The notes beneath the pieces were generated by a model. The model ran no database searches, was not told the origin of the DNA, and saw nothing but the letters and a program-made list of their open reading frames with translations. Position numbers and translations under genes: made by a program. From contig CP060222.1 in NCBI GenBank assembly GCA_023898425.1, positions 990,001 through 1,022,000 of the forward strand: 32,000 bases of DNA. The letters run 5' to 3'. Source of the DNA: Candidatus Saccharimonadota bacterium (GTDB lineage: Bacteria; Patescibacteriota; Patescibacteriia; 2-12-FULL-60-25). Positions 871-23,287 of this stretch are shown here, in pieces (position 1 is the stretch's first letter; each line of letters opens with the position of its first letter).

Positions 871-1752
871 ATGACACCAAAAAAAGTTCGCAAAGTCATT
901 ATTCCGGTAGCTGGATTTGGTACGCGATTTTTACCTGCAACAAAGGCAACGCCAAAAGAGATGTTGCCAATTATCGATAAGCCCGTTATTCAATATATTG
1001 TTGAAGAGGCGGTAGCAGCAGGTATTGAGGATGTCATTTTGGTAACGAGCCACATGAAACGCCCCGTTGAAGATCATTTTGATGATAATGAAGAGCTCGA
1101 ACGATGGCTTGAGAAGCAAGGCAAAAAATCACTTCTAGAAGAAATAAAAGGGATTTCTCAACTCGCGAACTTTATTTATGTTCGCCAAAAAGGCCCTTAT
1201 GGCAATGCGACACCGGTAAAAAACGTTGAGCATATTATTGGCGACGAGCCCTTTGCGGTGCTTTTTGGTGACGATGTCTTTGATTGCAAAACACCCCGCT
1301 TAAAGCAGATGTTAGATGTGTATGAACAATACGGCGGTCCTGTGCTTGCATCTATAAAGACGGATAAAGAGGGGACGAAGAAATTTGGCATCATCGAACC
1401 CGGAAAAAAACTCGGTAAACGTGTTTTTGAAGTAAAAGGGATGATTGAAAAGCCTGGCCCAGAAAAGGCGCCATCATTGTTAGCGACCGTTGGTGGCTAT
1501 ATCTTAACGCCAGATATTTTTAAACACCTGGCTAAGCTTAAAAAGAATAAAGTGAATGGCGAATATATTTTGGTGGATGCTATTACTGAGCTTATGAAAG
1601 AGCGGCCTATGTATGCTGTAGAGCTAGACGGTCGTTATCATGACACAGGTTCTAAGCTTGGTTGGCTTGAAGCGAATATTGCTTTTGCCCTCAAGCGGCC
1701 AGATCTAAAAGAAGGTGTAAAGAAAATGCTCAAAAAAGAATTGGGTAAGTAA
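871..1752 (+). CDS. galU: UTP--glucose-1-phosphate uridylyltransferase
   Basis: 293 aa. The N-terminus KVIIPVAGFGTRFLPATKATPKEMLPIIDKPVIQYIVEEA is the canonical GalU nucleotide-binding signature. The full-length ORF is followed by a terminator. Confidence 0.9.
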   Translation: MTPKKVRKVIIPVAGFGTRFLPATKATPKEMLPIIDKPVIQYIVEEAVAAGIEDVILVTSHMKRPVEDHFDDNEELERWLEKQGKKSLLEEIKGISQLANFIYVRQKGPYGNATPVKNVEHIIGDEPFAVLFGDDVFDCKTPRLKQMLDVYEQYGGPVLASIKTDKEGTKKFGIIEPGKKLGKRVFEVKGMIEKPGPEKAPSLLATVGGYILTPDIFKHLAKLKKNKVNGEYILVDAITELMKERPMYAVELDGRYHDTGSKLGWLEANIAFALKRPDLKEGVKKMLKKELGK

Positions 1753-1794: not shown

Positions 1795-3198
1795 ATGTCT
1801 TTTTCTTTAAAGAAAGCGGTCGCTCTTTTGGGTGTTCTTGCGATTACTGGTCAAGGTTGTACAAAGGCTTTACCACAAGCAACCGTTAATGCATCAAAAC
1901 CTGTAACCCTCAGAATCTGGGGAGTTGTTGATGACTATAATGTCTATCAGCCGGCGATAGAGTCATGGCGCAAATTGCATCCAAACGTCACGATTGAGTA
2001 TAAGCGTTTTCGTTTAGAAGAGTATGAAAATGAGCTCCTCAATAATTTTGCCGAAGACCGTGGACCAGACATCTTTTTAATCCACAATACTTGGACAGGG
2101 GAGTACTTATCAAAGATTACCCCAATGCCTAAGCAGGTTTCTACGGCCTATCGTGTTACTTCGGGTGGTGTGAGACCGCAACTGACATGGGAGTTACGTG
2201 CTGAGCCTACGGTTTCACTTATTGATATCAAAAATCAATTTGCTGATACGGTTGCTCGTGATCTTGTTCGTACCGTCAACGTTGGTACGACCGACAAACC
2301 GGTAAACGAAGAACGTGCTATGGGTGTACCAGTCGGTATTGATACACTTGCGCTTTACTACAATAAGGATTTGTTAAATGCGGCTAATATCCCAACGCCA
2401 CCTGAGGATTGGGGACAATTTACCGAACAAACGAAGGCGCTCACACAGATAGATACTGACGGTAATCTCACAAGAACAGCCGCTGGTATTGGTACATCCG
2501 CTAATGTTGAGCGAAGTGTGGATATTATCGCTGCACTTATGATGCAAAATGGTACTGTGATGGCGGATGATTTCGGTTACCCTACCTTTGACCGTATTCC
2601 TGCAGGCTTGACTGGGGTAGAGTTTCCGCCGGCATATCGCGCGCTTGAGTTCTATACAGATTTTGCAAATCCAAATAAAGACACCTATACCTGGGATGCT
2701 AAGCAACCAAATTCGTACGAAGCCTTTATCCAAGGGCAAACCGCCTTTTTCTTTGGCTATGCGTATCACGGTGATTTGATCCGTGCACGTGCGCCTCGTT
2801 TAAATCTCGGTATTACAAAACTACCTCAAATAGGCGGTAGACCACCTGTTAATATTGCGAACTATTGGTATTTTGCCGTTGCAAAAAAATCCGCTTCGCA
2901 GGATCTAAGTTGGTCATTACTTACGTATCTGTCTAAAGCAGATCAACAAAAAGCGATGCTCGCTATCGCAAAACGTCCTGCTTCACGAAAGGCTTTGCTT
3001 ACGGAGCAATTAAATGATGAGCGTATTGGTGTATTTGCCTCGCAAGTTCTAACAGCGACAAATTGGTATCGCGGTAAAAATATCACCGCTACAGAAGATG
3101 CCTTGCAGTCGATGATTGATGATATTGTTGCGGGTAGAGCTCCAATCAATCAAGCGGTGCGTCGTGCATCCGATGTGATTTCGCAGACGATTCAATAA
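1795..3198 (+). CDS. Lipoprotein, extracellular solute-binding protein (ABC-type, family 1-like)
   Basis: I prefer ATG at 1795 (MSFSLKKAVALLGVLAITGQGC, signal peptide plus lipobox), because the track start at 1777 is a TTG inside the galU terminator. Length and composition fit sugar-type SBPs. No permease or ATPase gene is adjacent. Confidence 0.65.
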   Translation: MSFSLKKAVALLGVLAITGQGCTKALPQATVNASKPVTLRIWGVVDDYNVYQPAIESWRKLHPNVTIEYKRFRLEEYENELLNNFAEDRGPDIFLIHNTWTGEYLSKITPMPKQVSTAYRVTSGGVRPQLTWELRAEPTVSLIDIKNQFADTVARDLVRTVNVGTTDKPVNEERAMGVPVGIDTLALYYNKDLLNAANIPTPPEDWGQFTEQTKALTQIDTDGNLTRTAAGIGTSANVERSVDIIAALMMQNGTVMADDFGYPTFDRIPAGLTGVEFPPAYRALEFYTDFANPNKDTYTWDAKQPNSYEAFIQGQTAFFFGYAYHGDLIRARAPRLNLGITKLPQIGGRPPVNIANYWYFAVAKKSASQDLSWSLLTYLSKADQQKAMLAIAKRPASRKALLTEQLNDERIGVFASQVLTATNWYRGKNITATEDALQSMIDDIVAGRAPINQAVRRASDVISQTIQ

Positions 3199-3218: not shown

Positions 3219-4142
3219 ATGCTACGTGCGCTTTCAAAGACGTTTGCCCTCTCGCTTGCCATATTAGGTTTAGGATTATTTACCAATCCTCAAATAAGTC
3301 TTGCACAGGCTGATCCTGCACCAGCTTCAACAGGTATTGGTGATGGTTGCGGAGAATCTACCAATAGTAGAATGAATAATGCAGAGCGAAGAACAATCGC
3401 TAATCTCGTCACACCCGAGGTTCCTGCATCCGCTTTTTCTTGTCGTGACGTTTCAAGTATCCCCGAAGCACAAAGACAAGCTTCTTGTGTATCAGGCCTA
3501 TGTCCGGGGGCAGCAACAGTCATGTGCTGTAAGCCATCTATAGGCGCTTCTCTTAATGTTACCGGGGGGAGTGATGCAAGCTCGACGGGTCCTAGTACCA
3601 CAGGTCAAACGGGAGGCGTAGGTAGACTCGCGCTCCCATCGTGTGTTTCTGATGGTAATTGTGGACTAGATGGTATGGTTACCATGGCCGTAAATTTTTC
3701 TAACTTTCTTTTTGGTATATCTGGCGCGATCTTTTTGTTGATATTTGTGTACGCGGGGTTTCGACTTATCTTCTTCGCGCCGGACGCTGGCACGGTCAAA
3801 GAAGCAAAGAGCATGCTCGTTAAAGCAACAACGGGTATGGTGATTATTGCGCTTGCAGGTGTTGCAACAACCTACCTCTACAATGGTTTACGTAGCGGTC
3901 AAGTAACCGGAGGTGGAGCGCCTACCACGAGTAGCGCATGTGCAACAAGAGAAGATGGGCAGCCATCGGGATTAACTTGTGTGCAAATCAGTAATGTCCC
4001 TAGAACAACAGATTATGCTGCTTATAGTGCCGCTCTTGAGAGTATGGGTTGTAGACCTTCGCCAAGAGGTCAAAGTCTTTGCACAGGAGCTACCAATTAT
4101 TGCTGCCCAGCAGGCACTCCAGACACCTATGTTGCACGCTAA
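3219..4142 (+). CDS. Secreted Cys-rich protein with central T4SS-pilin-like (VirB2/TrbC-type) two-helix module
   Basis: Signal peptide MLRALSKTFALSLAILGLGLFTNPQISLAQA. The central module is FSNFLFGISGAIFLLIFVYAGFRLIFFAPDAGTVKEAKSMLVKATTGMVIIALAGVATTYL. Cys-rich segments lie on both sides (SCVSGLCPGAATVMCCKPS and SLCTGATNYCCPAG). Confidence 0.6.
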   Translation: MLRALSKTFALSLAILGLGLFTNPQISLAQADPAPASTGIGDGCGESTNSRMNNAERRTIANLVTPEVPASAFSCRDVSSIPEAQRQASCVSGLCPGAATVMCCKPSIGASLNVTGGSDASSTGPSTTGQTGGVGRLALPSCVSDGNCGLDGMVTMAVNFSNFLFGISGAIFLLIFVYAGFRLIFFAPDAGTVKEAKSMLVKATTGMVIIALAGVATTYLYNGLRSGQVTGGGAPTTSSACATREDGQPSGLTCVQISNVPRTTDYAAYSAALESMGCRPSPRGQSLCTGATNYCCPAGTPDTYVAR

Positions 4143-4152
4143 TTTTTACGTT

Positions 4153-5154
4153 ATGAAAAACGCTCTCATTACGCTCGCTTTAACTTTAAGCGTATTTATT
4201 ATTATACCGTTACGTGCTCATGCTGAGAATGTTCCTTTTCTTTGTGCGGGGGATACTATCATCGTTAATGATTTTAATAGAGTTGTACCTGTCATTGGAA
4301 AAACTCAAGCATTAACTGCATGTATGGAATATATTGTTGCAAACAATAAAACAGGCAGCACCTTAGAAGCACGAGAAAAGGATATTCAAACAGGTGAGGC
4401 TCGTGCTGGGGGATTTTCTTATAATGCGAATTTTTGTTGGTGCTCCGTTCCAGGAAACTCAACGAGCTGTGTCCCTAAGGTGCTTTTTGCTGCCAATGAT
4501 AGCGCGGCTTGTGATTCTAGATGTTCTGAGGGTGGCGCTGTGGCAGTCCGTCGGCATTTTGAGCCACAGTATAAAGATTATCGAGGCACAACAAATAGTA
4601 ATAAGTGCGGTAACTATTGCTGGTGCAGCCAGCCAGCAGCTGCAGGAGAAACTGGTACGCGCTGTACACTGCATCGAGATACTCCCAAAAGAATTGGCGC
4701 TCAAGAAGTAAGAGTGCCGCTTACAGAGAGAGATGAATGTAGTGCATTATGTAATTCGATTGCCGGCGGGTCTGCAAAACAGTACCAAATGACCTACAGG
4801 AATTATTCAGGATCCTCTGACTGTTCTGTGGCAGAAGGCTCTGTTCCTGATGGTTCAGATTCAGTAACCCCACGTACAACTACCCCAGCTCCAACCGTTC
4901 GTTTGTTTAACCCGCTTTCAGGCGCTACAACCATCGTTGATATTGTTAATCGTGTGATAAAAATGATGCTAGGCGTGGTAGGGGGCGGCGCATTACTGAT
5001 GTTTGTCTACGGCGGTTTTAGCTGGATGATGGCGGGTGGTGATACGGGTAAATTAAGTACGGCAAAGACCATTTTATTAAACGCTACGTTAGGAATACTA
5101 TTGTTGATTTTCTCTTACGCTATTGTCTCAACCTTCTTTAGTCTATTAACTTAA
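4153..5154 (+). CDS. Secreted Cys-rich protein (two CWCS repeats) with C-terminal T4SS-pilin-like module
   Basis: I prefer ATG at 4153 (MKNALITLALTLSVFIIIPLRAHAEN signal peptide), because the track ORF start at 3979 overlaps the previous gene. C-terminal module: VIKMMLGVVGGGALLMFVYGGFSWMMAGGDTGKLSTAKTILLNATLGILLLIFSYAIVSTF. Confidence 0.65.
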   Translation: MKNALITLALTLSVFIIIPLRAHAENVPFLCAGDTIIVNDFNRVVPVIGKTQALTACMEYIVANNKTGSTLEAREKDIQTGEARAGGFSYNANFCWCSVPGNSTSCVPKVLFAANDSAACDSRCSEGGAVAVRRHFEPQYKDYRGTTNSNKCGNYCWCSQPAAAGETGTRCTLHRDTPKRIGAQEVRVPLTERDECSALCNSIAGGSAKQYQMTYRNYSGSSDCSVAEGSVPDGSDSVTPRTTTPAPTVRLFNPLSGATTIVDIVNRVIKMMLGVVGGGALLMFVYGGFSWMMAGGDTGKLSTAKTILLNATLGILLLIFSYAIVSTFFSLLT

Positions 5155-5167
5155 GCTATAAATTGTT

Positions 5168-5881
5168 ATGTTATTTTTTCAAAAAATAAAAACGTTCTTG
5201 TTGGTAGCAATTACCATGATTGGATTTGGTTCTTTTACTGCCGTGTATGCGTCAGACAATCCATTTACAGAATTTTTTAGCCGAGAAGGATATGATTCTT
5301 GCGCAAATATTGATGATAACCAAAACAATGACTGTGGTGCTGATGATTTTGAAGCGGTACGTGGCGCATTGGTAAGCTCTGGTCTTTGTCCAACAGATCA
5401 AGATTGTACACAAGGGCAATACAGCCTCTTTCAAGTTGAGTTTTCTAACTCTCGTGCCGGTACTGAAGAAGCGCCCTCACCGGGGCCAGATCCTTCACCA
5501 AGCGGAGGGGATGTTCCTACCTTTAGAAGCCCTACAGAATTTGGCTACCAAAGCCCTGTTGGTAACGATACAACGATAAATAGTTTTATAAGTCGCATCA
5601 TTAAGTTTGCTCTCGGAATTGTTGGCGCTGTTTTTTTGGCGATGCTCATCTACTCCGGTATTTTGTGGATGACGGCCGGTTCACAGTTTTCAGGTTCAGG
5701 AGATAAGCCAGGATCTAGTACATCTCAAATCGCTAAAGCAAAAGCCTCTATTAAAAACGCGGTGATTGGTATGGCTATTGTGGCACTCTCTTATGCAATC
5801 GTCACGACCGTATTTAATGTCGGAAATAGCGTTCTCAGGAGTCCTCCAGCAGCAGGCTCGTCGGGCTCGGTTACCCCATAA
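5168..5881 (+). CDS. Secreted protein with Cys-containing N-domain and T4SS-pilin-like module
   Basis: Has a signal peptide/TM segment and a SGLCPTDQDC motif. Module: IIKFALGIVGAVFLAMLIYSGILWMTAG...AKAKASIKNAVIGMAIVALSYAIVTTVF, with a longer inter-helix loop than its paralogues. Confidence 0.6.
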   Translation: MLFFQKIKTFLLVAITMIGFGSFTAVYASDNPFTEFFSREGYDSCANIDDNQNNDCGADDFEAVRGALVSSGLCPTDQDCTQGQYSLFQVEFSNSRAGTEEAPSPGPDPSPSGGDVPTFRSPTEFGYQSPVGNDTTINSFISRIIKFALGIVGAVFLAMLIYSGILWMTAGSQFSGSGDKPGSSTSQIAKAKASIKNAVIGMAIVALSYAIVTTVFNVGNSVLRSPPAAGSSGSVTP

Positions 5882-5945
5882 GGCACTTATTGAGCTTGGT
5901 ATAACAAAAGAGTTGCACGATGTTCTACTGATATTTCGGTGACTA

Positions 5946-5954
5946 TGGTATACT
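5946..5954 (+). promoter_or_regulatory. Extended -10 element (TGgTATACT) upstream of the short-pilin genes
   Basis: tggtatact lies about 65 nt upstream of ATG 6019. A strong RBS aaaggaggtg sits at 6001-6010. This is the only long (137 nt) gap inside the pilin array. Confidence 0.35.
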
Positions 5955-6018
5955 TTTTGTGTCGTCCAAACATTCAGTGGGACGATCTATCTAACATGAG
6001 AAAGGAGGTGAATTACGC

Positions 6019-6417
6019 ATGACCCCTCGTATAAAAAAACTCGCTGCTTTTGCTGCATCGACTGCTCTTGCAGCCGTTCTAGTATTACCAGCTACTACTT
6101 TTGCACAAGGTACTTTAAACGCTAATGATCTTGGCGTCGGAGCTATTAGCAACGATATCAAACTTGGCTCAGGTGACGTCCGTCAAACGGCTGCACGTAT
6201 TATTAACGTTGCTCTTAGTTTTCTCGGTCTTATCTCAGTTGTTATAGTGCTCATTGGTGGCTTTAAGTACATGGTATCAGGAGGCAACGACACGAAAACC
6301 GACGAAGCGAAGAAACTTATCACTTCTGGTATTATCGGTCTTGCTATCATCCTTTCAGCATGGGCGATCACAAGTTTTGTGATTAGCCAGTTACTTACCG
6401 CAACTTCGGATATCTAG
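6019..6417 (+). CDS. T4SS-pilin-like protein (VirB2/TrbC-type), short form
   Basis: 132 aa. Signal peptide ...LPATTFAQG, then IINVALSFLGLISVVIVLIGGFKYMVSGGNDTKTDEAKKLITSGIIGLAIILSAWAITSFV. It has the strongest RBS of the array. Confidence 0.7.
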   Translation: MTPRIKKLAAFAASTALAAVLVLPATTFAQGTLNANDLGVGAISNDIKLGSGDVRQTAARIINVALSFLGLISVVIVLIGGFKYMVSGGNDTKTDEAKKLITSGIIGLAIILSAWAITSFVISQLLTATSDI

Positions 6418-6460
6418 TCCCATTGTATATATAATCCGGCGTACCGCCGGCAATCCTTTC

Positions 6461-6994
6461 ATGAAACGAACTATCAAAACAGTGTTCGCCTTCGTGACGG
6501 CAATCATGCTTGCCATGCCGGCGGTCACGTTTGCTCAACTTACTCCGGCCAACACCGGATTAACAACAGCAGCAGCCGGAACCGGCCTCAGTACCGGTTG
6601 TTCAGGTACAGAGTGTGTCGTTACGATTATTGCGAATGTCATAAATATCGTTCTTGGTTTTCTTGGCGTCGTCCTGTTGCTCATCGTCATGTACGCTGGC
6701 TTCAAGTGGATGACCGCCGATAAAGAAGACGACGTGAAGAACGCGAAGTCGATGATAAAGAATGCTGTTGCTGGCCTAGTGGTCATCACGGTATCCTATG
6801 CATTTGCGGCTTTCGTTATAGAGACACTAGGAACTCTCGGTAATCCAGCTCAAGAAGTGCCAGCTCCTACTCAAGATGATTCTGCTGGTGGGCAACCACG
6901 AGGCTCGGGCAGTGATGCGTCTTCAAATAACGATAACCCTCCAGCTCAGCAAGAAGGGACAGATTCCTTCATTTGGAGACTGTTTGGTGGATAA
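6461..6994 (+). CDS. T4SS-pilin-like protein with disordered acidic/polar C-terminal tail
   Basis: Signal peptide ...AMPAVTFAQL. Module VINIVLGFLGVVLLLIVMYAGFKWMTADKEDDVKNAKSMIKNAVAGLVVITVSYAFAAFV, followed by a low-complexity tail. Confidence 0.65.
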   Translation: MKRTIKTVFAFVTAIMLAMPAVTFAQLTPANTGLTTAAAGTGLSTGCSGTECVVTIIANVINIVLGFLGVVLLLIVMYAGFKWMTADKEDDVKNAKSMIKNAVAGLVVITVSYAFAAFVIETLGTLGNPAQEVPAPTQDDSAGGQPRGSGSDASSNNDNPPAQQEGTDSFIWRLFGG

Positions 6995-7016
6995 TTAACT
7001 CTCACTCTTAACATTT

Positions 7017-7409
7017 ATGAAATATTTCTATTCAAAAGCAGTACTGCTAACTACCTCAGTTGGTACAGCGCTCACTGGTACAGTTGTCCATGCTGCAGGT
7101 AACCCATTTGGTAGTAGTGGTTCCGCTCAACAAGAATTAGGCAAGGTGCAAACAGCATCAGGATTAGGTACCGGTGATTTATCAACAATGATTGGTACTA
7201 TTATCAATGTGGTCCTTGGGTTCATGGGTATCGTTCTTCTCTTCTACATAATCCTTGCAGGTTGGGAATGGATGAGTGCTGGTGGTGAAAAAGATGGCGT
7301 AGAAACAGCGAAGGCTCGTATCAAGAATGCTGTTATTGGTCTTGTTATTATCGTTTCAGCATACGCGATTTCTACCTTTGTTATTGATCAGCTTGTAAAG
7401 TTAACATAA
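7017..7409 (+). CDS. T4SS-pilin-like protein, short form
   Basis: 130 aa with a signal peptide. Module IINVVLGFMGIVLLFYIILAGWEWMSAGGEKDGVETAKARIKNAVIGLVIIVSAYAISTFV. Confidence 0.7.
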   Translation: MKYFYSKAVLLTTSVGTALTGTVVHAAGNPFGSSGSAQQELGKVQTASGLGTGDLSTMIGTIINVVLGFMGIVLLFYIILAGWEWMSAGGEKDGVETAKARIKNAVIGLVIIVSAYAISTFVIDQLVKLT

Positions 7410-7518: not shown

Positions 7519-8491
7519 TTAAATATCTGTATTCATGCCACCATCAGTAGAGCTGATGGTGAGCTGACTTCGCTGATTGATCAAGTCAGCTACCTGATAC
7601 CTGCGCACTCGACTGCGCGATACAGGCATCAGAGCTCCAAGAGCCCCGCTGGCCGTAGGTAGGTATAGGTACACCCCAATTTCGACCGTCGGGCTATTCC
7701 CCTCCAGCTCCATTACGAAGCTGGTGTCTGTGTGCGCTGGCAAGCGCGCTGCGGACACAATGGCCGCCGCCTTGCATTTGCTGCACGGCCATCTGGGGAC
7801 GCCCATTTCTGAGTAGGAGAGCCTCTCCTTCCGTTGACCGTTATTACCATCCAGTACATGGACGGTCTAACTTCAACAGTAATAGCTACAGGCGATGTCG
7901 CCTGTAGCGTGCCGCCGGAAGCTAAGCTAGGGTCGATGGTGCGACGTGAGCCTGGCGAATACCAGGTCGCATCAAAAATCCCCACCGTACTCGCGAGACG
8001 AGTTGTCTCAAAAGTACTTGGGCAGTACCCAAGCTGAGCATAACTCCATCCCTGAAACATGCCTTGGGGCATGTACGGGGAACAAGGGAGGCGTCGCAGC
8101 CACTGGAGGTGTGCTCGCAGCGGGTGCTGGAGCAGGTGCCGCCGGTGTGGTCTGTGGCGCAGCAGCAGCAGCAGCTGGTGCTGCTGCTTGCTCGGTGGAG
8201 CAGTAGCTCGGCGTCGTGGCGCCCTGCACGTTGCACGTACAGTCCACGAGGCAGGCGCGAGCGCCCGCGACCAAGAAGCGGTTCGCTTCCTGATACTGCT
8301 CAAGGTTTCGAGGAGTGACGCGCGTACGCCCACTCACCGTCGTGCACTGAGGTGCATGACAGGCGGAGAGGAGCCGCTCGATGAAGACGTGTATACGTCT
8401 CCCGAGCGCGAACGAGCGGATCCTCCTGCCCAAAGGCGGTGGAGGAAACGAGAAGGAGCATCGTCATGGTGACGAGAAAGAACTTGTACAT
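7519..8491 (-). pseudogene. Disrupted gene for a secreted Cys-rich protein with Ala/Pro linker (frame changes at least 3 times), or partly non-coding hairpin-rich DNA
   Basis: ATG at 8491 gives signal peptide MYKFFLVTMTMLLLVSSTAFGQ. Protein-like sequence then continues in other frames: ...CHAPQCTTVSGRTRVTPRNLEQYQEANRFLVAGARACLVDCTCNVQGATTPSYCSTEQAAAPAAAAAAPQTTPAAPAPAPAASTPP, then GIFDATWYSPGSRRTIDPSLASGGTLQATSPVAITVEVRPSMYWMVITVNG, then ...FVMELEGNSPTVEIGVYLYLPTASG. No single frame is intact. Confidence 0.35.
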
Positions 8492-8521
8492 TTTTTAACT
8501 TTTTTTTGTATTTTTGGAGTT

Positions 8522-8582
8522 CCCTCTCTAAACTAGAGAGGGACGACCACGTAACAACAAGCAATGCTTGCGTTACGTGGTC
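8522..8582 (-). other. Two adjacent strong hairpins between the two minus-strand secreted-protein genes
   Basis: First: ccctctcta/tagagaggg (9 bp, 8522-8542). Second: gaccacgtaac...gttacgtggtc (11 bp, 8545-8582), extended by inner caagca/tgcttg. No U run follows on the minus strand, so this is not a classical terminator. Confidence 0.45.
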
Positions 8583-8590
8583 AGGGTGAG

Positions 8591-9172
8591 TCACTGCGCA
8601 GCCCTTGCGGCTGCACGTTGTTCGCCACGAGTCACAAGCTCGGCTTCGAGCTCCTCTTCGCTCATGCCAGCTCGCGTTTGCGAAGCCGGAGGCAAGTTTG
8701 GAACCTGTGGTCCGTACAGCACCGCTTGGCGCTGCATGCTGTAGTTGGCGGTCATGCCATTGAAGTATCCGCTGGTGTACAACGGCATGAATTGCCCAAA
8801 GGGCATCATGCCGAATTGTGACCCATTCAGCGCACCGGCGCGGAGTGTGCACGCGTCCATGATTTGGACCTGCGAGTAGCGGCAACCGGTAACACCGGCT
8901 TCGCAAATCGCAAGACCTGCGTCATTGTCAGCTGTGAAGCTGACAACGCATTGGTTGTAGCCTCGGGTTTCAACCGTGGCATATTGCCGTTGGTTAGAGA
9001 CCGTGTGGCAATTCCCAGCCACACAGACCTGTCGCGTGCTGCTGCGTCCGTACGGGCTTCGTACATTGCTGCTAGCGGCGTTGTAGCAGCCCTGCATCGT
9101 GAAGATGAAGAGCGCCGCCAAGGCGACGAAGCCAAAGAACCTAATGAAACCGTTCAACGTTAGCTTTTCCAT
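8591..9172 (-). CDS. Cys-rich lipoprotein, unknown function
   Basis: 193 aa. MEKLTLNGFIRFFGFVALAALFIFTMQGC is a signal peptide plus lipobox. RBS aaaggaga lies upstream. Eight Cys residues and a charged C-terminal tail. Intact frame in GC-rich DNA. Confidence 0.7.
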   Translation of the reverse strand: MEKLTLNGFIRFFGFVALAALFIFTMQGCYNAASSNVRSPYGRSSTRQVCVAGNCHTVSNQRQYATVETRGYNQCVVSFTADNDAGLAICEAGVTGCRYSQVQIMDACTLRAGALNGSQFGMMPFGQFMPLYTSGYFNGMTANYSMQRQAVLYGPQVPNLPPASQTRAGMSEEELEAELVTRGEQRAAARAAQ

Positions 9173-9376: not shown

Positions 9377-9472
9377 TGCGTGTTCTCGGCAAGCTGCCGG
9401 GGATACCATCGTAACTTCACAACTTAACAAAAAATAGTGAAGTTTTCACGTCAATCAAGCCAAGGAGGCACA

Positions 9473-10390
9473 ATGGCTAAAGGCAAGGGTAAGAATAGTG
9501 GCTTGAGTGAATTCCGCAAGGACACGCTCGAGCTCATGGTCGAGTTTCTCGCCAGAAAATTTGGCGTGAATCTTTTGACCGTGATGCCTGCGTCACTCAA
9601 GGATCAGCTCCTTAGGCTCCTCGGTGGGCCTGATGGAGAGATCACTGAGCAGCAGATCTACTACTTCTCGATGATCCCCAAGTTTTTGTTCAGCGGTACG
9701 CTGAGCGAAGAGGCGGGACAAAGCTTTGTAAAAAGCTTTGGTGAGTCCTTGCGTGCGTATGGTCAAAATCCAAACGCGGATCGTGATGCTCGCCGCATGG
9801 ACATCCAACGCTTCTTGAACGAAGCGATCGTTGCTAGTGAGGCAAAACGGCCCACGAGCATCATCAGCAAAGCGAACCTCTTTGAGAGGATCGCAAACTT
9901 GCCATCGAGCGATAGCGCTTACATGGTACGTATGCTCATCTCACTTCAACAAGGGGGAGCACACAAGCTCAGTATGAACAGTTCTACGACGCCGCCAAAA
10001 AGTTGGTTGTCGAAGAGCAGCATCTGTTTCTTGTCATTCAGTATTTGAAGAATGGCAAGCAGGACATGGCCTACAAGGAGCTTGTCCGTGTCTTGAAAGA
10101 TGCGGCTCTGGTGAATCCTCCTGAGAAGCCAAAGAAGCCGAACTGTATGGAACGGCTTAAAGGCTCGTGCAGAAGAAGAGCTGGATAAGCTCAGCTTGGA
10201 CCATGGTCGAGATATTATCGACTATGTCGTTCAGCCAGGAGATACTATCGATTCAATTGCGAGTCAGTATCAGATTGAAGAGCATACGGTTCGTAACATG
10301 AATCACCTGAAACAGGGTGATCAGCCAGCGGTTGGTGCAACACTTCGTGTCGTACAGGGACCATTTTACGGATCCAATTCGACAAGCTGA
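9473..10390 (+). pseudogene. LysM-domain protein, split over three ORFs by two compensating frame changes
   Basis: RBS aaggagg plus ATG 9473 (MAKGKGKNSG...). The frame changes near the G5 run at 9953-9957 into ...STQAQYEQFYDAAKKLVVEEQHLFLVIQYLKNGKQDMAYKELVRVLKDAALVNPPEKPKKP. It returns to the original frame near 10140 as ...LKARAEEELDKLSLDHGRDIIDYVVQPGDTIDSIASQYQIEEHTVRNMNHLKQGDQPAVGATLRVV, which is a LysM motif. Confidence 0.55.
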
Positions 10391-10453
10391 AAAACTCACG
10401 GCCAGTCTCCTTAGGCGACTCGGCTAAACCACACTTCAACATTGGAGAACATC

Positions 10454-12700
10454 ATGAACGAAAGACTGAAAGCGCGCTTTGAGGACATTAGCCTAGCGGC
10501 TCTATCCTTTCTCGGGATCTTCTTAGGACTCAAAGCCTACATGGCAGAGTTCAAGGTTCTGACGGGGCTTGCAAGTGCCACGGGGAGAATGAGTGTTCGC
10601 ACAGTTGTGCGTTTGCTCAACTACAACGGTGTCGCCATGTTGCGACCCTTGTACACCTTCATCATCCTCACACAGCTTTTTGCTGATGGTTGTGGGTGTA
10701 TTGCCGCTCGTGTGCTTGTCATACGAGTTGATGTCAGCGCTGATCATTGTGCCCAGCACCTTGATGCTGATTTGGCTCGTGTGGCGCAGACTACGGCTCC
10801 GAAACGTTGTGCCTTTAGCTCAAGCGAGCTCAATGCCCTTCTTGATTCGGATGCGATGATTGTGAACTTCGGTCATGGTGATCGATTTTCTGTCGTTGAT
10901 TTGGTGACTTTCCCATTGGCTCTTATCGGTCAGGGATTGCTCCTTATCGTGATCGCCTTCTTAACGGGAGCGATTTACGGTACATCGGTGGCATTTATCT
11001 GGTCGGTCATGGCCGTCGGCATCATCACGTACGTTTTTGGCGTGTCGTTGTTGAGGCTCACCGTTGGCACTATCGGCGTATTTGTCGTAGCGCCCAGCAA
11101 GTGGGTTGAAACAGCGTCTGGTAGAATCGCGCGTGCGATTCTTGATCCGGTCCTGCCGGGGATCACGGCAGCCAATGTCGGGGATCTCTTGCCGGGTAGC
11201 TTGGTGGATAAGCTCAAAATGCTTTTCACCAGGTTGGACGACGGGATGAAACTCATGGACCAGTTTGCTGCTCCGATCATTATGATCTTGGCAGCAACTC
11301 TGAATCTGCCGGTCGCAGGATTGTGTATTGCTGGCCTGTTGATCTTTGGGATCTACCAAAATACCAAGCTACGTAAAGGCGGAACGTTTGCTGCAGAAGC
11401 AAAGAAGAGCATCAACGAAGGAGAGCGTTTTGTCTACGCCCTCTCGGTATTCTTCTATGTGTTGCACATCATCGGGCTCTTTGTCTTTGGTTTGCATACG
11501 CGACCAAGCGTAGGCATCCTTGGTGGGTCGCTCATGAACGTGTTGCAATTCGCGACAAGCGGATTGCTCATCAGCGCCGCTTCGGTTTTTGTCCTGATAA
11601 AGGTCAAGAATTGGGGCTTTGCTGCGCACAAGGGGCTTGAGCTTACGCTTCCGCAAATCGCGGGGGTCATTGCTCTCGTTCTATTGTTCGCGGTATCTGG
11701 CATTGGTGTCGCTAACGCGACCGGTATGGAGATCCGTCCTGTGGCTTCATATTTTGACAGGTATGAACATCCTCCAGGAGAGGCGCTTCATTGTCTCAAT
11801 GGGATCAAGGATCATGGAGAAAGCTCTACGGACCATGGTCCAGGCTGTGGGCCCGCTCGACAAGGGGGTGACGAAGCCTCTCGTCGGATTGCGGCAGATT
11901 TGCCGGTCGAGTTTGCTCCGGTTCCTGGCGGCACGATCTTTCAAAGAGCGTGGTGCTGGGCATTTAAGAGCTCAGATTCTTGTGTTGGAGCAGCGGTGGA
12001 GAGTCCTCGTCAACAGCGGGGATTTCATCCAGCGCCTTCATCCGCACCTGAGCAAGCACCCGCTCCAATACAACGGACTCCTTCGGGGCCAATGTACGCG
12101 TCGCTTGATGCGAATGTTGCTTCGGGTGGGCTTCCGCCGTCACCGTACAACGAGATCATCGTGAGAGCGAGTGAGCGCCATGGCGTTGACAAGCTCTTGA
12201 TCTGGACGGTAGCAAAGCATGAGTCCGGCTTTGATCCCAACATTGTTGGGGGGAGTGGAGAAGTCGGTCTCATGCAGCTTATGCCTGGTACGGCACGCGG
12301 GCTAGGTGTTCATGATCGTCATGATCCTGAACAAAACATCATGGGTGGTACGCTCTATCTCCGGAATAATCTGGATGCGTGCCATCAAGACGTTCGTTGT
12401 GCTTTGGCTCGCTATAATGGCGGACGTAATGGAATGCATTCACCACATGCTCAACGATACGCTCGTCGTGTCATGAGAAAGTATCAAGCACTCCGTACAG
12501 GTACGGCTCGTGATTATGAGCCGGCACCATCTCGACGTCATCGCGCTCCGCGAATCGAGTCTTCGGATTCGGTTCTCGTCGAGCGTGAGACCACGCGTGA
12601 TTCGTCGCGTGTGACGATGGCTCGTCTTGACGACAGCGTCTGTGATGAGTTCTCCCAGTTCTTTCTCGAGCGTATGCGATCGCAAGGTCGCTGTCGCTAA
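10454..12700 (+). CDS. Polytopic membrane protein with C-terminal soluble-lytic-transglycosylase (SLT, GH23) domain
   Basis: I prefer ATG at 10454 (RBS ggagaa); the track start 10442 is a TTG. About 430 aa of multiple hydrophobic helices are followed by a Pro/Ser linker. The SLT signature is LLIWTVAKHESGFDPNIVGGSGEVGLMQLMPGTARGLG...LARYNGG. Confidence 0.8.
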   Translation: MNERLKARFEDISLAALSFLGIFLGLKAYMAEFKVLTGLASATGRMSVRTVVRLLNYNGVAMLRPLYTFIILTQLFADGCGCIAARVLVIRVDVSADHCAQHLDADLARVAQTTAPKRCAFSSSELNALLDSDAMIVNFGHGDRFSVVDLVTFPLALIGQGLLLIVIAFLTGAIYGTSVAFIWSVMAVGIITYVFGVSLLRLTVGTIGVFVVAPSKWVETASGRIARAILDPVLPGITAANVGDLLPGSLVDKLKMLFTRLDDGMKLMDQFAAPIIMILAATLNLPVAGLCIAGLLIFGIYQNTKLRKGGTFAAEAKKSINEGERFVYALSVFFYVLHIIGLFVFGLHTRPSVGILGGSLMNVLQFATSGLLISAASVFVLIKVKNWGFAAHKGLELTLPQIAGVIALVLLFAVSGIGVANATGMEIRPVASYFDRYEHPPGEALHCLNGIKDHGESSTDHGPGCGPARQGGDEASRRIAADLPVEFAPVPGGTIFQRAWCWAFKSSDSCVGAAVESPRQQRGFHPAPSSAPEQAPAPIQRTPSGPMYASLDANVASGGLPPSPYNEIIVRASERHGVDKLLIWTVAKHESGFDPNIVGGSGEVGLMQLMPGTARGLGVHDRHDPEQNIMGGTLYLRNNLDACHQDVRCALARYNGGRNGMHSPHAQRYARRVMRKYQALRTGTARDYEPAPSRRHRAPRIESSDSVLVERETTRDSSRVTMARLDDSVCDEFSQFFLERMRSQGRCR

Positions 12701-12772: not shown

Positions 12773-14340
12773 ATGATGATCACGATTCGTATGCAAAAGA
12801 TTTTTTCTCTCTTTCAAAAAACGTGGATGCGCTGGCTTTTGTTTTTATCGGTTCTTTTGGCTTGGTTCATTGGTTTTCAGCCATGGGGCAGCTTTTCTGA
12901 TCCCGATGCGTTTTACCATTCAACCATGGCGGCGATCATGTTGAAGCAAGGATTGATTCAAGATTTTTATTGGTTGGATCTGACTTCTTTTGCACACCCA
13001 TTTTTTAATCAGCACTTTCTCTTTCATATAGCATTGGTTCCTTTTGTCGCAGTTTTTGGTGCATTGTTAGGTGGTCAAATTGCAGCCGTCTGTTTTGCGA
13101 TACTTTTTTGTCTCGTCTTTGCTTGGTGCTTAAAAAAACTACAATCACCAGCACCGCTCTTTTGGACCTTGGTCATGGCGACCATGCCTGCGATGACGGC
13201 GCGTCTCTCATATGGTAAGGCCTCACCTTTTGCTGTTGGGTTATTTATTTTGGGTGTTACGGCATTGATTTCTCGTTCGAGATGGCTTGGATTTTTTAGC
13301 ATGATGTTGTTTGTTTTATCGCATGCGGGTTGGCCATTGCTAATCTTGGCGCAAGGCGCACTTCTTGTGGGTCACGCTTTGTATTTATGTGCTGTTGATT
13401 CGGTGCCTTTTTGGCGAGTGTTTTGCGACAAAGAATGGCTTAGTGAGGTCGCGCTCTTTTTTACAACGCTATTAGGGGCGATTGTTGGTATTGCGTTACA
13501 TCCGTACCGGGCTGAGCTCTTTGTCTTTTTAAAGGTGCAGCTTTTTCAGATTGGTATCGCGACGCCTTATGATCGCGTGATTATGGGTAATGAATGGTAT
13601 GGTATTTCTCCGCTTACGGCTATTGCTTGGTATTATGTATTACTAGTGTGTTTCGGGTTTTTGCTTTTGGTCTTCTTGTTGCTAGAAGGGCTGCTAACCG
13701 TCAGGCGATGCGCTATGTGATTATGCTAGCGGTCCCTACGATATTTCTATTAGCACTTAATTTAAAGAGTGCACGTTTTGTAGAATACTCTGCACCTTTA
13801 CTTGTTTTATTGATGGCGCAACTCTTTCATCTTATCGATGTGAAAAAAACATGGCGTGAACTACAAAAGACCATGCGACCACGGTATGCCTATACTTTTG
13901 CTATCACGCTCGTAAGTATTTTCGGGTATCAATCCGTAGATCTTTTCTGGACATCTCACTCGCAAAACAAGTCTTTTCATTATTATGCTGGTGCAATGAG
14001 TGTTATTAAAAACGAGCTACAACCGGGTGATCGACTATTTCATTCGGATTGGTCACATATGCCAATACTGTGGGCAGAGAATCAAGACATTCGTTATGTC
14101 GCGGGTTTAGATCCAACATTTTTACTTACAAAAAATCCTGAACTTTCTGATCGGTATACTGAGCTTACCCTTGGTCGTGCGACGAGCACTGCTTATGAAG
14201 TCATCGCTATTGAGACGCAATCAAAAGCCGTCTTTGTTGATCGAGCACGCGGTACCGCTTTTGAATCCGCCCTTAAAGCCGACCAACGATTTGAGCTTTT
14301 GTATGAGGATGATCGTGCCGCCGTCTATCGTGTTCACTAA
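12773..14340 (+). pseudogene. Polytopic membrane protein, putative GT-C-type glycosyltransferase, read in two overlapping frames
   Basis: Track ORFs 12773..13720 and 13594..14340 overlap in different frames. The hydrophobic helix ...AWYYVLLVCFGFLLLVFLLL continues naturally as ARRAANRQAMRYVIMLAVPTIFLL, implying one frame change near 13680. The first-loop motif DPDAFYH resembles the acidic loop of GT-C enzymes; that family assignment is only an inference. Confidence 0.5.
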
Positions 14341-14983: not shown

Positions 14984-16159
14984 ATGAAGAATGCTCTTCG
15001 GTATCTCTTATTGGCATTACCTATTATATTGCCGACGTATCTCCTTCGATTTAAGATCGGTCCTTTGCCGACAACCGTTTTAGAAATTGTTGTTTTAGTG
15101 ATTATTGGGTTGTTTACCGTTACATACAAAGGCCAAGGATATAAAGATGCGTGGACAGCACTAAAAACATTTCGACTTCCGCTTATAGCTTTTACGTTTT
15201 TTTCATTGGCTGCGGTTTTTTGGTCGCCGGTACTGGTGCAGGGGTTAGGATTATGGCGGGCTTATGTTTTAGAGCCGATGCTCTTGCTAATGGTTTTTGT
15301 TGTAAGCATTGGTCGTGATGTACGCCGTGAAGAGATAGAACGATCTTTATACGTGAGCGTTTTGCTCCTTGCGATGTGGGGAGTTGTTGAATATCTTTTT
15401 GGGGTAGGTATCCCAAGTCCTTGGAATGTAGCGATAAGTGAAGGTCGTCGAGCGACGGGGCCATTTCCTTATCCAAATGCCTTAGCCTTAGCAGTGGTAC
15501 CAATTGGTGCGTATGGGTTATCACGTTTTATCTCATCACGTGATCGTTTAGGGTTTATCACTTTTGTGATGGCGCTTATCGCTTCGTTTGTTGCACGAAG
15601 TGATGGGGGATTCATTGCGCTCGCGGCTGTGCTTTGGTTGGCGCTCGTTTCAATCAAGCGCCTTCGTTGGCCTGTAATTGTTGTGACTATTATAGGATTG
15701 GCTGTTGGTTTTGGTGTCTCAGAGATTCGTGAACCTGTTCTAAAAGAACTACGTTTAGAAAACTGGTCTGGGTATGTACGTAAAAAAATGTGGCAGGACA
15801 CAACAGTTCTGCTCAAGGATCACCCGATAAAAGGCGCAGGTATGGCGGGATATCCTACGGTGTTTAAGCCGTATCAAACCACAACGGGTATTGAAGTCTT
15901 TCAGTATCCACACAATATCATCCTAAATTTTTGGGTAGAGACAGGTCTCGCTGGGCTCTTGGCTTTTTTCTGGATTGTTTTTGCTTGGCTCAAAAAGAAA
16001 GAGGCAATGCTATTGCCTCTTGTCGCGCTACTCATTCATGGTCTGGTAGATGTGCCGTATTTTAAGAATGACTTAGCGATTGTCTTTTTTCTTTTGCTAG
16101 CACTTTGTGCAATTACGCAAAGTGCTTCTTCGCGTACGTCTCAAGGGCAAGTAAAATAG
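14984..16159 (+). CDS. O-antigen ligase / polymerase family (Wzy_C-like) membrane protein
   Basis: 391 aa and polytopic. FQYPHNIILNFWVETGLAGLLAFFWIVF matches the H-N-x-x-L...E-x-G signature of the Wzy_C family. Confidence 0.65.
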   Translation: MKNALRYLLLALPIILPTYLLRFKIGPLPTTVLEIVVLVIIGLFTVTYKGQGYKDAWTALKTFRLPLIAFTFFSLAAVFWSPVLVQGLGLWRAYVLEPMLLLMVFVVSIGRDVRREEIERSLYVSVLLLAMWGVVEYLFGVGIPSPWNVAISEGRRATGPFPYPNALALAVVPIGAYGLSRFISSRDRLGFITFVMALIASFVARSDGGFIALAAVLWLALVSIKRLRWPVIVVTIIGLAVGFGVSEIREPVLKELRLENWSGYVRKKMWQDTTVLLKDHPIKGAGMAGYPTVFKPYQTTTGIEVFQYPHNIILNFWVETGLAGLLAFFWIVFAWLKKKEAMLLPLVALLIHGLVDVPYFKNDLAIVFFLLLALCAITQSASSRTSQGQVK

Positions 16160-17824: not shown

Positions 17825-17916
17825 GGAGAGGTGGCAGAGTGGTCGAATGCAACGGACTTGAAATCCGTCGTACGGCTTTAACCGTACCGAGGGTTCGAAT
17901 CCCTCCTTCTCCGCCA
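17825..17916 (+). tRNA. tRNA-Ser (anticodon UGA), CCA encoded
   Basis: Acceptor ggagagg/cttctcc; anticodon stem-loop acgga-cttgaaa-tccgt; long variable arm cgtacggctttaaccgtaccg; T arm gaggg-ttcgaat-ccctc. It ends in gcca. Confidence 0.9.
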
Positions 17917-18049
17917 GCAAAAAAACACTCGATTAACGAGTGTTTTTTTGATTTAGCCACCTTTGGTTTTGACTAGTCACGAGTTATAAATAGTGAATTC
18001 GTGTATGATGAAAAAAGATACTTACTAAGGTATAGAGGAAAAACAAAAA
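17911..18049 (+). repeat. Direct repeat copy 1 (attL-like): last 6 nt of the tRNA, its terminator and the tspO upstream region
   Basis: ccgccagcaaaaaaacactcgattaacgagtgttttttt...ggaaaaacaaaaa. It differs from copy 2 only in A7 versus A6 and gcca versus tccta. Confidence 0.85.
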
Positions 18050-19392: not shown

Positions 19393-19607
19393 ATTGTTTT
19401 GAAATTAGCTTTTGGGCAATCAAAGAAAAATGCGTTCAACCTTTCGCTGAAAGCGTGGAAAAATTAGTTCTGAAAACTTCGTTTTCTCTGTTGTCGCACA
19501 GGAACTTCCACATTGCCGACCGCACTTTGTTTTTGGATTTCAAAAATGCCTTCAAAATGCGGAAAAAACCCCATGCCGAGGCGCTTCCGATTCCGATTTC
19601 AAGTTTT

Positions 19608-19813
19608 GGCGGTGTGTATTGGACGAAGTTCGAATGTATTTCGGACAAAATCCGCAGGATTTTGACGAATGACCTTTGCGCCTCGGCGCGCTCGACAAGC
19701 TCGCGCGGGGCAAAACCCAAAAATTTCCTATCATTTTTATTTGCGGCTCCCCCACACACCCCCGCCGAAAATGGATTGGTAAGGAAATTTTTGGTTTTGC
19801 TGCCGCCGCTTCA
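19608..19813 (+). repeat. Inverted repeat, left copy (about 206 bp)
   Basis: tggcggtgtgtattggacgaagttcgaatgtatttcggacaaaatccgcaggattttgacgaatgacc...gctgccgccgcttca. This is the reverse complement of 23990-24198, with a few substitutions and short indels. Confidence 0.8.
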
Positions 19814-22639: not shown

Positions 22640-23287
22640 ATGAAACTTACCGAGCTTAAGAAAATTGAATTACCCAGAGAGAAAATGGAGAAGTACGGTG
22701 CAAAGCGCCTCAAAACTTTTGAGTTGCTAGCGATTGTGCTTGGCTCGGGAATCAAAGGATGTAATGTACTTGAACTTGCGCGAAAAAATAGAAAAACTTA
22801 TAGCTCTAAAATCGGTAAATAACGTCACGATTGATGATTTACGAAAAATTCGTGGACTTGGAAAAACAAAGGCAATTCAAATACTTTCCGTTATTTCCCT
22901 TGTGGATCGCCTTGGGAGCGAGCGTAGTGCTGAATTGTTATCAGGAAAAGATATATGGAATTTATGTGCGGACTTTCGTTCATCGAAAAAGAACACATGG
23001 TGGCGTTTTACCTCGACACTCAACAAAAATTGATCGAAAGGCGTGTTATCTCAGTAGGAACCCTTGACGCTTCACTTTTACACCCACGAGAAGTCTTTGA
23101 GCCTGCTTTGCAATTAGCAGCGGCAGGGGTTATTCTAGCGCATAATCACCCTTCGGGAAATCTCGAGCCTTCAGATGAGGATATCGCAGTCACAAAAAGA
23201 ATAGCTGACGCCGGAGATCTGCTTGGGATTAATCTTGTTGATCATATCATTGTTTCGGATAAAGAATTTCGAGTCATGAATCTGTAA
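22640..23287 (+). pseudogene. radC: RadC-like JAB-domain protein, frameshifted
   Basis: N-terminal LPREKMEKYGAKRLKTFELLAIVLGSGIKGCNVLELA, middle LRKIRGLGKTKAIQILSVISL, C-terminal ILAHNHPSGNLEPSDEDIAVTKRI. These lie on three track ORFs in different frames. Confidence 0.8.

Follow-up and report, generated by a model that had tools for sequence, protein, structure and literature searches.

A conserved array of six VirB2-like pilin-module genes with variable outer domains in a Magasanikbacteria-like genome

Patescibacteria account for much of bacterial diversity and apparently live attached to other cells, and how they hold and exploit their hosts is little understood. Quinonero-Coronel et al. 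(2025, PMC12102498) described 441 arrays of 2–11 VirB2-like genes, relatives of type IV secretion system (T4SS) pilin genes, in 383 Patescibacteria assemblies. According to the accessible part of that paper, identity between copies averages 25% and reaches a maximum of 54%, a pilin gene lies near virB4 in 1,135 of 1,948 assemblies, T4SS are present across most Patescibacteria classes, and the genes are described simply as small pilins. In Southlakia epibionticum ML1, six divergent, structurally similar VirB2-like pilins are encoded in the T4SS locus SEML1_0006-0019 (PMC10633639, PMC12857230). That array was essential by transposon sequencing (Tn-seq; Wang et al. 2023, PMC10633639; reviewed in PMC12857230), in the sole species for which genetics are available; a pilus in this monoderm organism has been proposed, was unexpected and has never been observed (PMC10633639, PMC12857230). 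In Bartonella (Trw) and Anaplasma (VirB2), tandem divergent copies are thought to diversify surface interactions, as cited in the accessible text of PMC12102498. Here, we describe an array of six such genes, g1 to g6, in a stretch of 32 kb (contig CP060222.1 of assembly GCA_023898425.1, positions 990,001 to 1,022,000), referred to below as the window, and we compare it with those systems.

On balance, and with some hesitation, we lean toward reading the locus as a Patescibacteria VirB2-like array in a conserved six-subunit form, in which bare subunits, above all g4, would serve as scaffold for a fibre or stub of T4SS type and g1–g3, together with g5, would display variable domains. The family and its copy number are already known for Patescibacteria. 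A sequence-only reading of the same stretch, made earlier, had regarded the high copy number as unusual; the published arrays of 2–11 genes (PMC12102498, in its accessible part) and the six-gene array of S. epibionticum (PMC12857230) show that it is not.

Our analysis covered the window and 10 kb beyond either end, ca. 52 kb of a 1.03-Mb genome. Related loci were collected by a metagenome scan with a module alignment of three sequences, which yielded 80 loci, and by a genome scan with the g1 family, using one genome per species, which yielded 16 loci; the source genome is not among these 16. Proteins identical to products of the array are annotated under Candidatus Magasanikbacteria (KC582_02505) and Candidatus Nomurabacteria (H6759_05420, H6759_05430), related records are labelled Uhrbacteria or Patescibacteria group, and the source genome is Magasanikbacteria-like. 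Magasanikbacteria and Uhrbacteria are both assigned to class ABY1 in the dataset of PMC12102498, as far as its accessible part goes. Public labels conflict, one species being named Magasanikbacteria, Nomurabacteria or plain "bacterium" (L101, L102, L105, L107, L108, L112; P0029, P0073), and several clearly Patescibacteria-type loci are deposited as metagenome-assembled genomes (MAGs) titled "uncultured Gammaproteobacteria". The pilin genes g1–g6 were corroborated by independent assemblies. The source species is present in activated-sludge and digester samples (e.g. JGI 3300009779 and 3300010350).

Six hairpin modules and their outer domains

All six proteins scored above the gathering cut-off of PF18895 (T4SS_pilin; 26.6 bits), with 31.6, 26.9, 29.9, 37.5, 37.6 and 32.1 bits for g1 to g6 (E 5e-6 to 2e-9), g2 passing only narrowly. 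A hidden Markov model (HMM) built from the six modules found no further copy in the window. Together, these two results indicated that the shared module is real and not an effect of chance hydrophobicity, and they bear out the earlier description of six tandem same-strand genes sharing a T4SS_pilin-type module. From g1 through g6, the genes (Table 1) are separated by gaps of 10, 13, 137, 43 and 22 nt. The mechanical open reading frame (ORF) of g2 begins at GTG 3979; a signal-peptide-compatible ATG lies at 4153, and some gene calls use an alternative start at 4129 (341 aa). Paralogues within the array are 18–29% identical over their full length and 32–49% identical in the module, in which five residues are invariant (G169, G180, A196, K197 and G206 in g1 numbering). 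The A-K pair of this set sits in the charged loop of every module, as the sequence-only reading had it, and the W-M-x-A-G-G and S-Y-A-I motifs named along with it hold for g2–g6 but not for g1, which deviates at both (LIFFAPD; AGVA).

Signal peptides and transmembrane (TM) helices were judged from a hydropathy scan and from cleavage-type sites. Each of the six proteins has two TM-like helices, and in the AlphaFold models of g1 and g2 these form hairpins (residues 150-185/191-227 and 254-293/298-332, respectively), in agreement with the two-helix topology that had been proposed. An N-terminal hydrophobic segment was flagged in g1–g5, and a small-x-small site lies ahead of the mature part in all six (AQA, AHA, VYA, TFA, TFA and VHA, in order). 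The signal peptide attributed to every member is thereby upheld for g1–g5, while g6 has the cleavage-type site but an N-terminus too weak to be flagged. The type IV pilin signal (class III, G/FxxxE) occurs in none of the six N-termini, and both hydrophobic helices lie far from the N-terminus. Because homologous disulfide-type domains flank the two-helix hairpin of g1, both termini of that protein should lie on the outer face. Hydropathy, the AlphaFold models and the domain arrangement of g1 all support a hairpin with both termini outside the cell, and by this topology the ectodomains of g1–g3 and the tail of g5 lie outside as well.

The proteins differ in their content of Cys, with 14, 14, 4, 0, 2 and 0 residues in g1 to g6. 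In g1, the signal peptide is followed by a six-Cys domain (aa 41–110), a linker, a C-x5-C loop abutting the first helix, the pilin hairpin (aa 137–225) and a second six-Cys domain (aa 238–300), so that eight Cys stand on the N-terminal side of the hairpin and six on the C-terminal side; the positions are conserved in an alignment of 35 sequences of the g1 family. The Cys-rich domains noticed earlier on both sides of this hairpin proved to be homologous (HHalign probability 96.7%, E 3.3e-10), and both six-Cys domains were modelled by AlphaFold at a predicted local distance difference test score (pLDDT) of ~85–95. In g2, a 14-Cys ectodomain (aa 24–225) with two CWC modules stands between the signal peptide and a Thr/Pro linker that leads to the hairpin (aa 250–333). 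All 14 Cys are invariant in nine orthologues, the CWC-containing module is internally duplicated (HHalign probability 86%, E 5e-6), and the AlphaFold model is mixed alpha/beta with a pLDDT of 71.

The outer part of g3 is smaller, consisting of a 72-aa four-Cys unit (~aa 31–98, nt 5258–5461) after the signal peptide and a Pro/Ser linker ahead of the hairpin (aa 135–217), which carries an 11-aa loop insertion. Three Cys-rich ectodomains had been counted in the sequence-only reading; the term is accurate for g1 and g2 but generous for g3. The linkers of g1–g3 are Ser/Thr/Pro-rich. In g5, a C-x4-C loop lies ahead of the hairpin and a 55-aa acidic/Pro-rich tail forms the C-terminus, the Uhrbacteria counterpart of this tail having 4–6 Cys, and g4 and g6 are bare short pilins without Cys. 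Homology to the g1 six-Cys domain was considered for the Cys unit of g3 and for those g5-type tails of relatives that contain Cys, and was rejected (HHalign probability <=5%).

Foldseek searches, with significance set at E <=0.001, returned no fold match for g1 in PDB or for g2 in PDB and BFVD, the top hits being generic helical hairpins at E >1, and neither ectodomain showed a recognisable adhesin or effector fold. In a search of 1.84 billion representatives, the g2 ectodomain alone matched no more than five real clusters, each a fusion to the pilin module. A sixth match, the 1,225-aa non-pilin protein P0071, was on inspection a repeat-summing artefact.

Within these proteins, the hairpin evolves slowly, and the exposed parts change fast and vary from strain to strain. 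Among orthologues of g2, the hairpin module is 71% identical versus 35% for the ectodomain; among those of g1, the module is 61% identical versus 35% for the N-terminal and 29% for the C-terminal domain. Over the upstream region and most of the array, near-identical strains share ~98.6% DNA identity. Among them, g3 has a single four-Cys unit in the window and in strain L002, and two units in at least seven other contigs (L001, L003 and L010–L014), in which a 216-bp in-frame tandem duplication yields a protein of 309 aa. In L002, the tail of g5 is replaced (148 aa) next to an identical hairpin, and g6 shows many differences N-terminal to a hairpin that is almost unchanged. A constrained module for assembly or anchoring that bears surface-exposed, selected domains would be expected to show such a pattern. 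Assemblies of the source species often break inside or just past the array.

Across Uhrbacteria and Magasanikbacteria-like genomes, the composition of the array is fixed. Each of its positions corresponds to a separate orthologue with a characteristic architecture, and the full-length arrays among the 16 genome loci, as well as L005–L009, show three long Cys-rich pilin genes and then three short ones after the gene for a solute-binding protein (SBP). In the genome loci, the first-position protein usually has eight Cys before and six after the hairpin, and Cys is generally missing from positions 4 and 6. The SBP gene lies directly upstream of the array in 16/16 genome loci. Of the metagenome arrays, 15 have 1.5 kb or more of sequence on that side, and 8 of these show the SBP gene directly upstream, at SBP identities down to 34%. 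In the window, its stop codon lies 20 nt ahead of the g1 start, and the two genes are therefore probably co-transcribed.

The region upstream of g4 sets this gene apart from the other five. An extended -10-like box, TGGTATACT, at 5946–5954 is invariant in six loci that range from Magasanikbacteria-like genomes to Uhrbacteria, and it is followed by a conserved leader hairpin at 5962–5985 (-10.2 kcal/mol), in which L008 and L009 have a single compensatory replacement of C-G by U-A. The Shine-Dalgarno sequence AGGAGGT precedes g4 at 6003–6009, and among the six starts only this one has an upstream sequence of that kind. L005 and L006 match the window in all 25 nt ahead of the ATG, and L008 matches it in almost all; g4 with its leader is the sole part of the array that can be aligned as DNA with L005 and L006 (82–84%), and its product is identical to USN52419.1 (locus tag H6759_05420). 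These features suggest that g4 may be made separately and probably in excess, as for a major subunit. Between g4 and g5 lies a GC-rich stem-loop, CCGGCGTACCGCCGG, which is not a classical terminator because it has no T-run; a similar GC-rich palindrome stands between the equivalents of g4 and g5 in L005, L006, L008 and L009. In a generic promoter and terminator scan, promoter-like sites were fewer than in shuffled sequences, and a tandem-repeat search of the window found nothing.

Relatives of the module and the competing explanations

Seventy diverse small relatives of the module, taken from related loci, served as the test set for family searches. All 70 matched PF18895, 67 matched NF045849 ("Mbov_0395 family pilin-like conjugal transfer protein") at E <=1e-3, and 27 matched TrbC/VirB2 (PF04956) at E <=0.01, with a best E of 3.9e-10; the pLS20 conjugation membrane protein family was matched by two. 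The only natural sequence in PDB to match the profile of the 70 relatives was Agrobacterium VirB2 (8cue), at a non-significant E of 0.81 (12.8 bits). "Pizza" designer proteins also appeared in this PDB profile search at E ~1e-7, an artefact of six summed short matches. These profile matches place the module in the conjugation pilin-like superfamily, with the window proteins best regarded as PF18895 members and not as canonical TrbC/VirB2.

The module has a second setting among its relatives. In 36 of the 80 metagenome loci, it stands right after the signal peptide of paired proteins of ~900 aa and ~2,000–2,850 aa (including L025, L031, L032, L036, L043, L045, L051, L060, L068, L069, L074, L084, L090, L091, L095 and L096). 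In the giant examples that were scanned (L068, L043, L033), a module scoring above the PF18895 cut-off is followed by Big_5, fn3 or TIG domains, and we found no description of this architecture, a pilin module joined to immunoglobulin (Ig)-like domains, in the searchable literature. Since it heads giant proteins in so many loci, the module evidently serves in many places as a base for large surface proteins, and proteins of this size are too big to act as the major subunits of a compact VirB2 helix. Other relatives differ in their surroundings. L037 and L056 are six-gene arrays of bare small pilins ~4.5 kb from dnaA, matching a published remark that T4SS parts lie near the origin in some Patescibacteria, and the pilin array of L086 lies ~5 kb from a PilB/T2SSE-type ATPase gene.

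In the fibre or stub that we favour, the proteins would be inserted by Sec and cut by signal peptidase I, and would then sit in the membrane with both termini outside. The bare subunits g4 and probably g6 would form the bulk of a VirB2-type fibre or stub, assembled by a VirB4-type machine encoded elsewhere, as has been proposed for the essential array of S. epibionticum. The remaining subunits, g1–g3 (and g5), would be present in lower abundance and, placed on the fibre or at its base, would show variable disulfide-stabilised domains to ligands or a partner cell. These outer domains are natural candidates for host recognition because they are fast-evolving and strain-variable. The SBP lipoprotein and the envelope genes downstream (lytic transglycosylase, possible GT-C-type, Wzy_C) probably serve the same surface structure, with possible roles in wall passage, glycosylation and ligand capture. 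The idea of a pilin-anchored display system, already put forward in the sequence-only reading, is plausible but unproven: the fast ectodomains, the strain differences in exposed segments and the giant Big_5/fn3/TIG proteins speak for it, whereas the ectodomains gave no recognisable adhesin or effector fold.

Several results weigh against a secretion-type fibre. In the window, Pfam scans found no VirB4, VirD4 or VirB6, in line with the earlier account, and the only ORFs of at least 500 aa encode an SLT-domain membrane protein and a P-type ATPase. From 10 kb upstream to 10 kb past the window end, no VirB4-like ATPase and no VirD4- or VirB6-like gene was found, the downstream 10 kb holding housekeeping genes only. 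A screen for Walker-A/Walker-B motifs, with candidates then checked by Pfam, likewise found no VirB4-like ATPase within 10 kb of ~110 related loci, the candidates being DnaA, EngA or PilB-type proteins. With no VirB4 near the array or its relatives, the link to a T4SS therefore draws on family homology and on literature concerning another class. No window protein reached the PF04956 cut-off of 27.9 bits (best g5 17.2 and g6 17.0 bits) or the curated NF045849 cut-off of 40 bits (g6 39.7 and g4 34.2 bits, g1 without a match); of the pilin and TrbC models suggested earlier as a check, PF18895 recovered all six proteins and PF04956 none at its cut-off. Ectodomains of 100–270 aa, and extensions of 2,000–2,850 aa in relatives, are hard to fit as major subunits of a VirB2 helix, and the giant proteins, while favouring display in general, also strengthen the case for a plain membrane anchor. 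The major-subunit role of g4 is itself read from sequence signals alone. A T4SS elsewhere in the genome is a prior expectation and not a result; in Table S1 of PMC12102498, as far as it is accessible, Magasanikbacteria assemblies are scored VirB4-positive, and the source assembly is not listed in that paper's supplement.

The alternative in which the PF18895 hairpin only tethers surface proteins in a monoderm cell, with neither fibre nor T4SS, is unlikely, though it has to be taken seriously. The giant paired proteins headed by the module in 36/80 metagenome loci and the want of a VirB4-like gene near any related locus are what it would predict, and the array is co-conserved with the SBP lipoprotein and envelope genes and not with secretion genes. 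Co-conservation with unrelated enzymes had been named in the sequence-only reading as a sign of ordinary membrane anchors, and in part this is what we found, as the array does keep company with the SBP gene and a galU-like gene. However, g4, g6 and largely g5 have nothing to tether, and bare forms of 120–150 aa dominate the arrays seen. No part of these proteins is as conserved as the hairpin with its loop; conservation of the loop and the helix faces would not be required of a mere anchor. Homology to conjugation pilin-like proteins in three libraries and the position of the S. epibionticum array inside an essential T4SS cluster (PMC10633639) also argue against it. A broader proposal, which strikes us as clearly unlikely, treats the PF18895 hairpin as a general Patescibacteria "display base". 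In ABY1, the galU-SBP-six-pilin operon would then build a VirB4-free hetero-oligomeric ligand-binding structure, with three bare subunits as a scaffold and three disulfide-domain subunits that bind host-surface ligands and pass sugars or glycans to the SBP, and the same base would carry the giant Ig-like adhesin pairs. If the module also anchors giant Ig-like proteins, the "T4SS pilin" annotation may be too narrow, and many PF18895 proteins of freshwater metagenomes would, if this is true, need to be read anew.

The steady company of the SBP gene raises a further explanation, in our view improbable, in which the proteins form a T4SS-independent, SBP-coupled envelope complex for the capture or import of host sugars or glycans, or are a substrate of the neighbouring glycosylation-type genes. 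The 20-nt spacing and a pairing that is kept to 34–40% SBP identity, in every genome locus and in about half of the metagenome arrays, fit such a complex, as do the galU-like gene upstream in most loci, the possible GT-C-type and Wzy_C genes conserved downstream, and the Ser/Thr/Pro-rich linkers of g1–g3. The SBP is also without an ABC permease or ATPase partner in the window. Against this, the synteny is partly general, since rpsO and the leucyl-tRNA synthetase gene are kept too; about half of the more distant arrays have no SBP gene; and, as regards a substrate, the SBP gives only weak NCBIfam matches, to MalE and GanS. We know of no precedent for two-helix pilin-like proteins in solute import, which counts against the complex as well. 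Very improbable, finally, is a cassette of interchangeable paralogues for antigenic or host-range variation, of the kind proposed for Bartonella and Anaplasma VirB2 and suggested for Patescibacteria arrays in the accessible part of PMC12102498. The exposed segments that differ between near-identical strains, the variable repeat number of g3 and the frequent breaks of source-species assemblies in or just after the array would suit it. A recently amplified cassette is nevertheless disfavoured because each position is an old, conserved orthologue with its own architecture; moreover, the paralogue modules share less than half of their residues, and all six genes are complete and lie close together, the window containing neither silent nor partial copies.

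Genes around the array

The features of the locus are collected in Table 1. Between the window and related loci, orthologues with 40–60% protein identity occur in a shared order: rpsO, the leucyl-tRNA synthetase gene, the galU-like gene, the SBP gene, three long and three short pilin genes, and then, on the 3' side, a gene for an opposite-strand secreted Cys/Pro-rich protein, genes without a family match, a gene for a polytopic protein and one for a membrane protein of ~500–520 aa. The galU-like gene lies directly upstream of the SBP gene in 12/16 genome loci and likewise in the distant metagenome loci L028, L030 and L072. By the gene calls of sister MAGs, the SBP is 467 aa long.

Table 1. Positions of the array genes, their control elements and neighbouring genes in the window
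Feature	Position (nt)	Strand	Product length	Basis or remark
galU-like UTP-glucose-1-phosphate uridylyltransferase	871-1752	+		PF00483 E 2.6e-30; TIGR01099 305.9 bits, cut-off 326.8
Solute-binding lipoprotein (SBP_bac_1/8)	1795-3198	+		PF01547, PF13416; lipobox-like LAITGQGC
g1	3219-4142	+	307 aa	
g2	4153-5154	+	333 aa	
g3	5168-5881	+	237 aa	
g4 control region	5944-6018	+		Cross-locus alignment
g4	6019-6417	+	132 aa	
GC-rich stem-loop	6436-6450	+		Between g4 and g5
g5	6461-6994	+	177 aa	
g6	7017-7409	+	130 aa	
Secreted Cys- and Ala/Pro-rich protein, gene broken into four or more frames	7534-8491	-		tblastn, L005/L006 orthologues
Cys-containing lipoprotein-like protein	8591-9172	-	193 aa	65% identical to L005 187-aa gene
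Polytopic membrane protein with C-terminal SLT lytic transglycosylase domain	10442-12700	+		PF01464 E 7.7e-23, aa 573-674
Polytopic membrane protein, frameshifted	12773-14340	+	~518 aa	60-67% identical to L005 518-aa gene, two frames
Wzy_C (O-antigen ligase / O-oligosaccharyltransferase-type) membrane protein	14984-16159	+		PF04932 E 6.5e-18

Directly past the array, the gene of the secreted Cys- and Ala/Pro-rich protein was recovered by tblastn in frames -2, -3, -1, -2 and -3, which requires at least four frame changes, its intact relatives being 329–364 aa long. The Ala/Pro-rich linker region of this frameshifted gene coincides with a GC peak at 8001–9000 (57.8% versus ~45% around), where ORFs occur on both strands. 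The lipoprotein-like product that follows gave no family match. Two further neighbours, at 9437–10161 (+) and the ~518-aa polytopic protein, carry one frameshift each relative to intact orthologues, and the frameshifts in all three neighbours could be either long-read indel errors or genuine pseudogenes.

The SLT-domain protein, 3 kb downstream of the array, has orthologues in L005, L006 and L039, and it could have a VirB1-like wall-opening role. The C-terminal SLT domain is present in the Magasanikbacteria-like loci, and the Uhrbacteria counterpart at the same position is 548–569 aa long with no SLT match on record. The N-terminal part of 480 aa of the window protein was considered as VirB6-like and rejected, with no Pfam match at E up to 5 and no PDB-sequence match outside the SLT domain. 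The product of the frameshifted ~518-aa gene is a possible GT-C-type glycosyltransferase, as suggested by a weak match (Glyco_transf_22, E 0.029) and a DPDAFYH motif. The Wzy_C protein, whose gene lies downstream of the array in Magasanikbacteria-like and several Uhrbacteria loci, gives weak NCBIfam matches to RfaL and to TfpM, the latter a pilin O-oligosaccharyltransferase. Because the Wzy_C, GT-C-type and galU-like genes are conserved and the linkers are Ser/Thr/Pro-rich, O-glycosylation of the pilin-like proteins is a possibility.

Farther along, a degraded integrative element adjoins tRNA-Ser(tga) at 17825–17916, its region spanning to 24331. A 107-nt direct repeat (17943–18049 and 24225–24331, 93% identical) brackets 6.28 kb of lower-GC DNA, which contains a serine-recombinase-like gene in three frames (18117–19263, minus strand, from translations), a truncated C5 DNA methylase gene (20345–20992), a RadC/JAB-like ORF (22955–23287) and inner inverted repeats of ~200 nt (19607–19813, 23990–24198). 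A stand-alone gene for a C39-like peptidase of 174 aa follows at 24837–25361 without a fused or adjacent ABC transporter, with Na/Ca exchanger and DUF389 genes after it.

Comparison with described pilin systems

Canonical pilins are small, are encoded in a T4SS operon and form polymers that include phospholipid; cyclisation or acetylation occurs in some of them. VirB2 (T-pilus), TrbC (RP4) and TraA (F) share with the array a signal peptide, two hydrophobic helices, a short basic loop and termini outside the cell, and a weak but recurrent sequence similarity connects them (TrbC for g5, g6 and 27/70 relatives; 8cue at a non-significant E). The window array, unlike these pilins, falls below the PF04956 cut-off and has three members with large extra domains. 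NF045849, the best-matching curated NCBIfam family, comes from wall-less or monoderm bacteria with a Gram-positive-type T4SS; its member in Mycoplasma is a single gene in the conjugation module of a mobile element, whereas the window genes have no integrative and conjugative element (ICE) context. The modular type IV pilins PilB and PilC of Streptococcus sanguinis join a conserved module to a grafted globular domain, which is shown on the filament as part of a minor subunit. The principle is the same as in g1–g3, but the pilin superfamily is unrelated and the assembly machine is different.

Closest in kind are the arrays of PMC12102498, which, to judge from the accessible part of that paper, are chromosomal and made of tandem PF18895/PF04956-type genes with low inter-copy identity, as is the window array. 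By the definition used there, the window has the 2–11 tandem pilin genes of low inter-copy identity but not the proximity to virB4. It also differs in being coupled to an SBP gene and in the ectodomains of half of its members, which the accessible text does not mention. We did not find described in the searchable literature the SBP linkage, the ectodomain fusions including the two-sided domain of g1, their orphan folds, the g4 control region, the ancient operon conserved position by position, or the lack of VirB4 near ~110 loci. The locus offers features that can be tested, namely a fixed six-subunit composition, a candidate major subunit in g4, the outer domains and a persistent SBP partnership in place of a secretion ATPase. 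The S. epibionticum array belongs to Saccharimonadia, is embedded in a T4SS and is essential by Tn-seq; in contrast, the window array belongs to ABY1, has no T4SS gene nearby and is known from sequence alone. In the diderm pathogens Bartonella and Anaplasma, the arrays are part of T4SS loci and their copies are small and alike, whereas in the window each position keeps a conserved architecture of its own.

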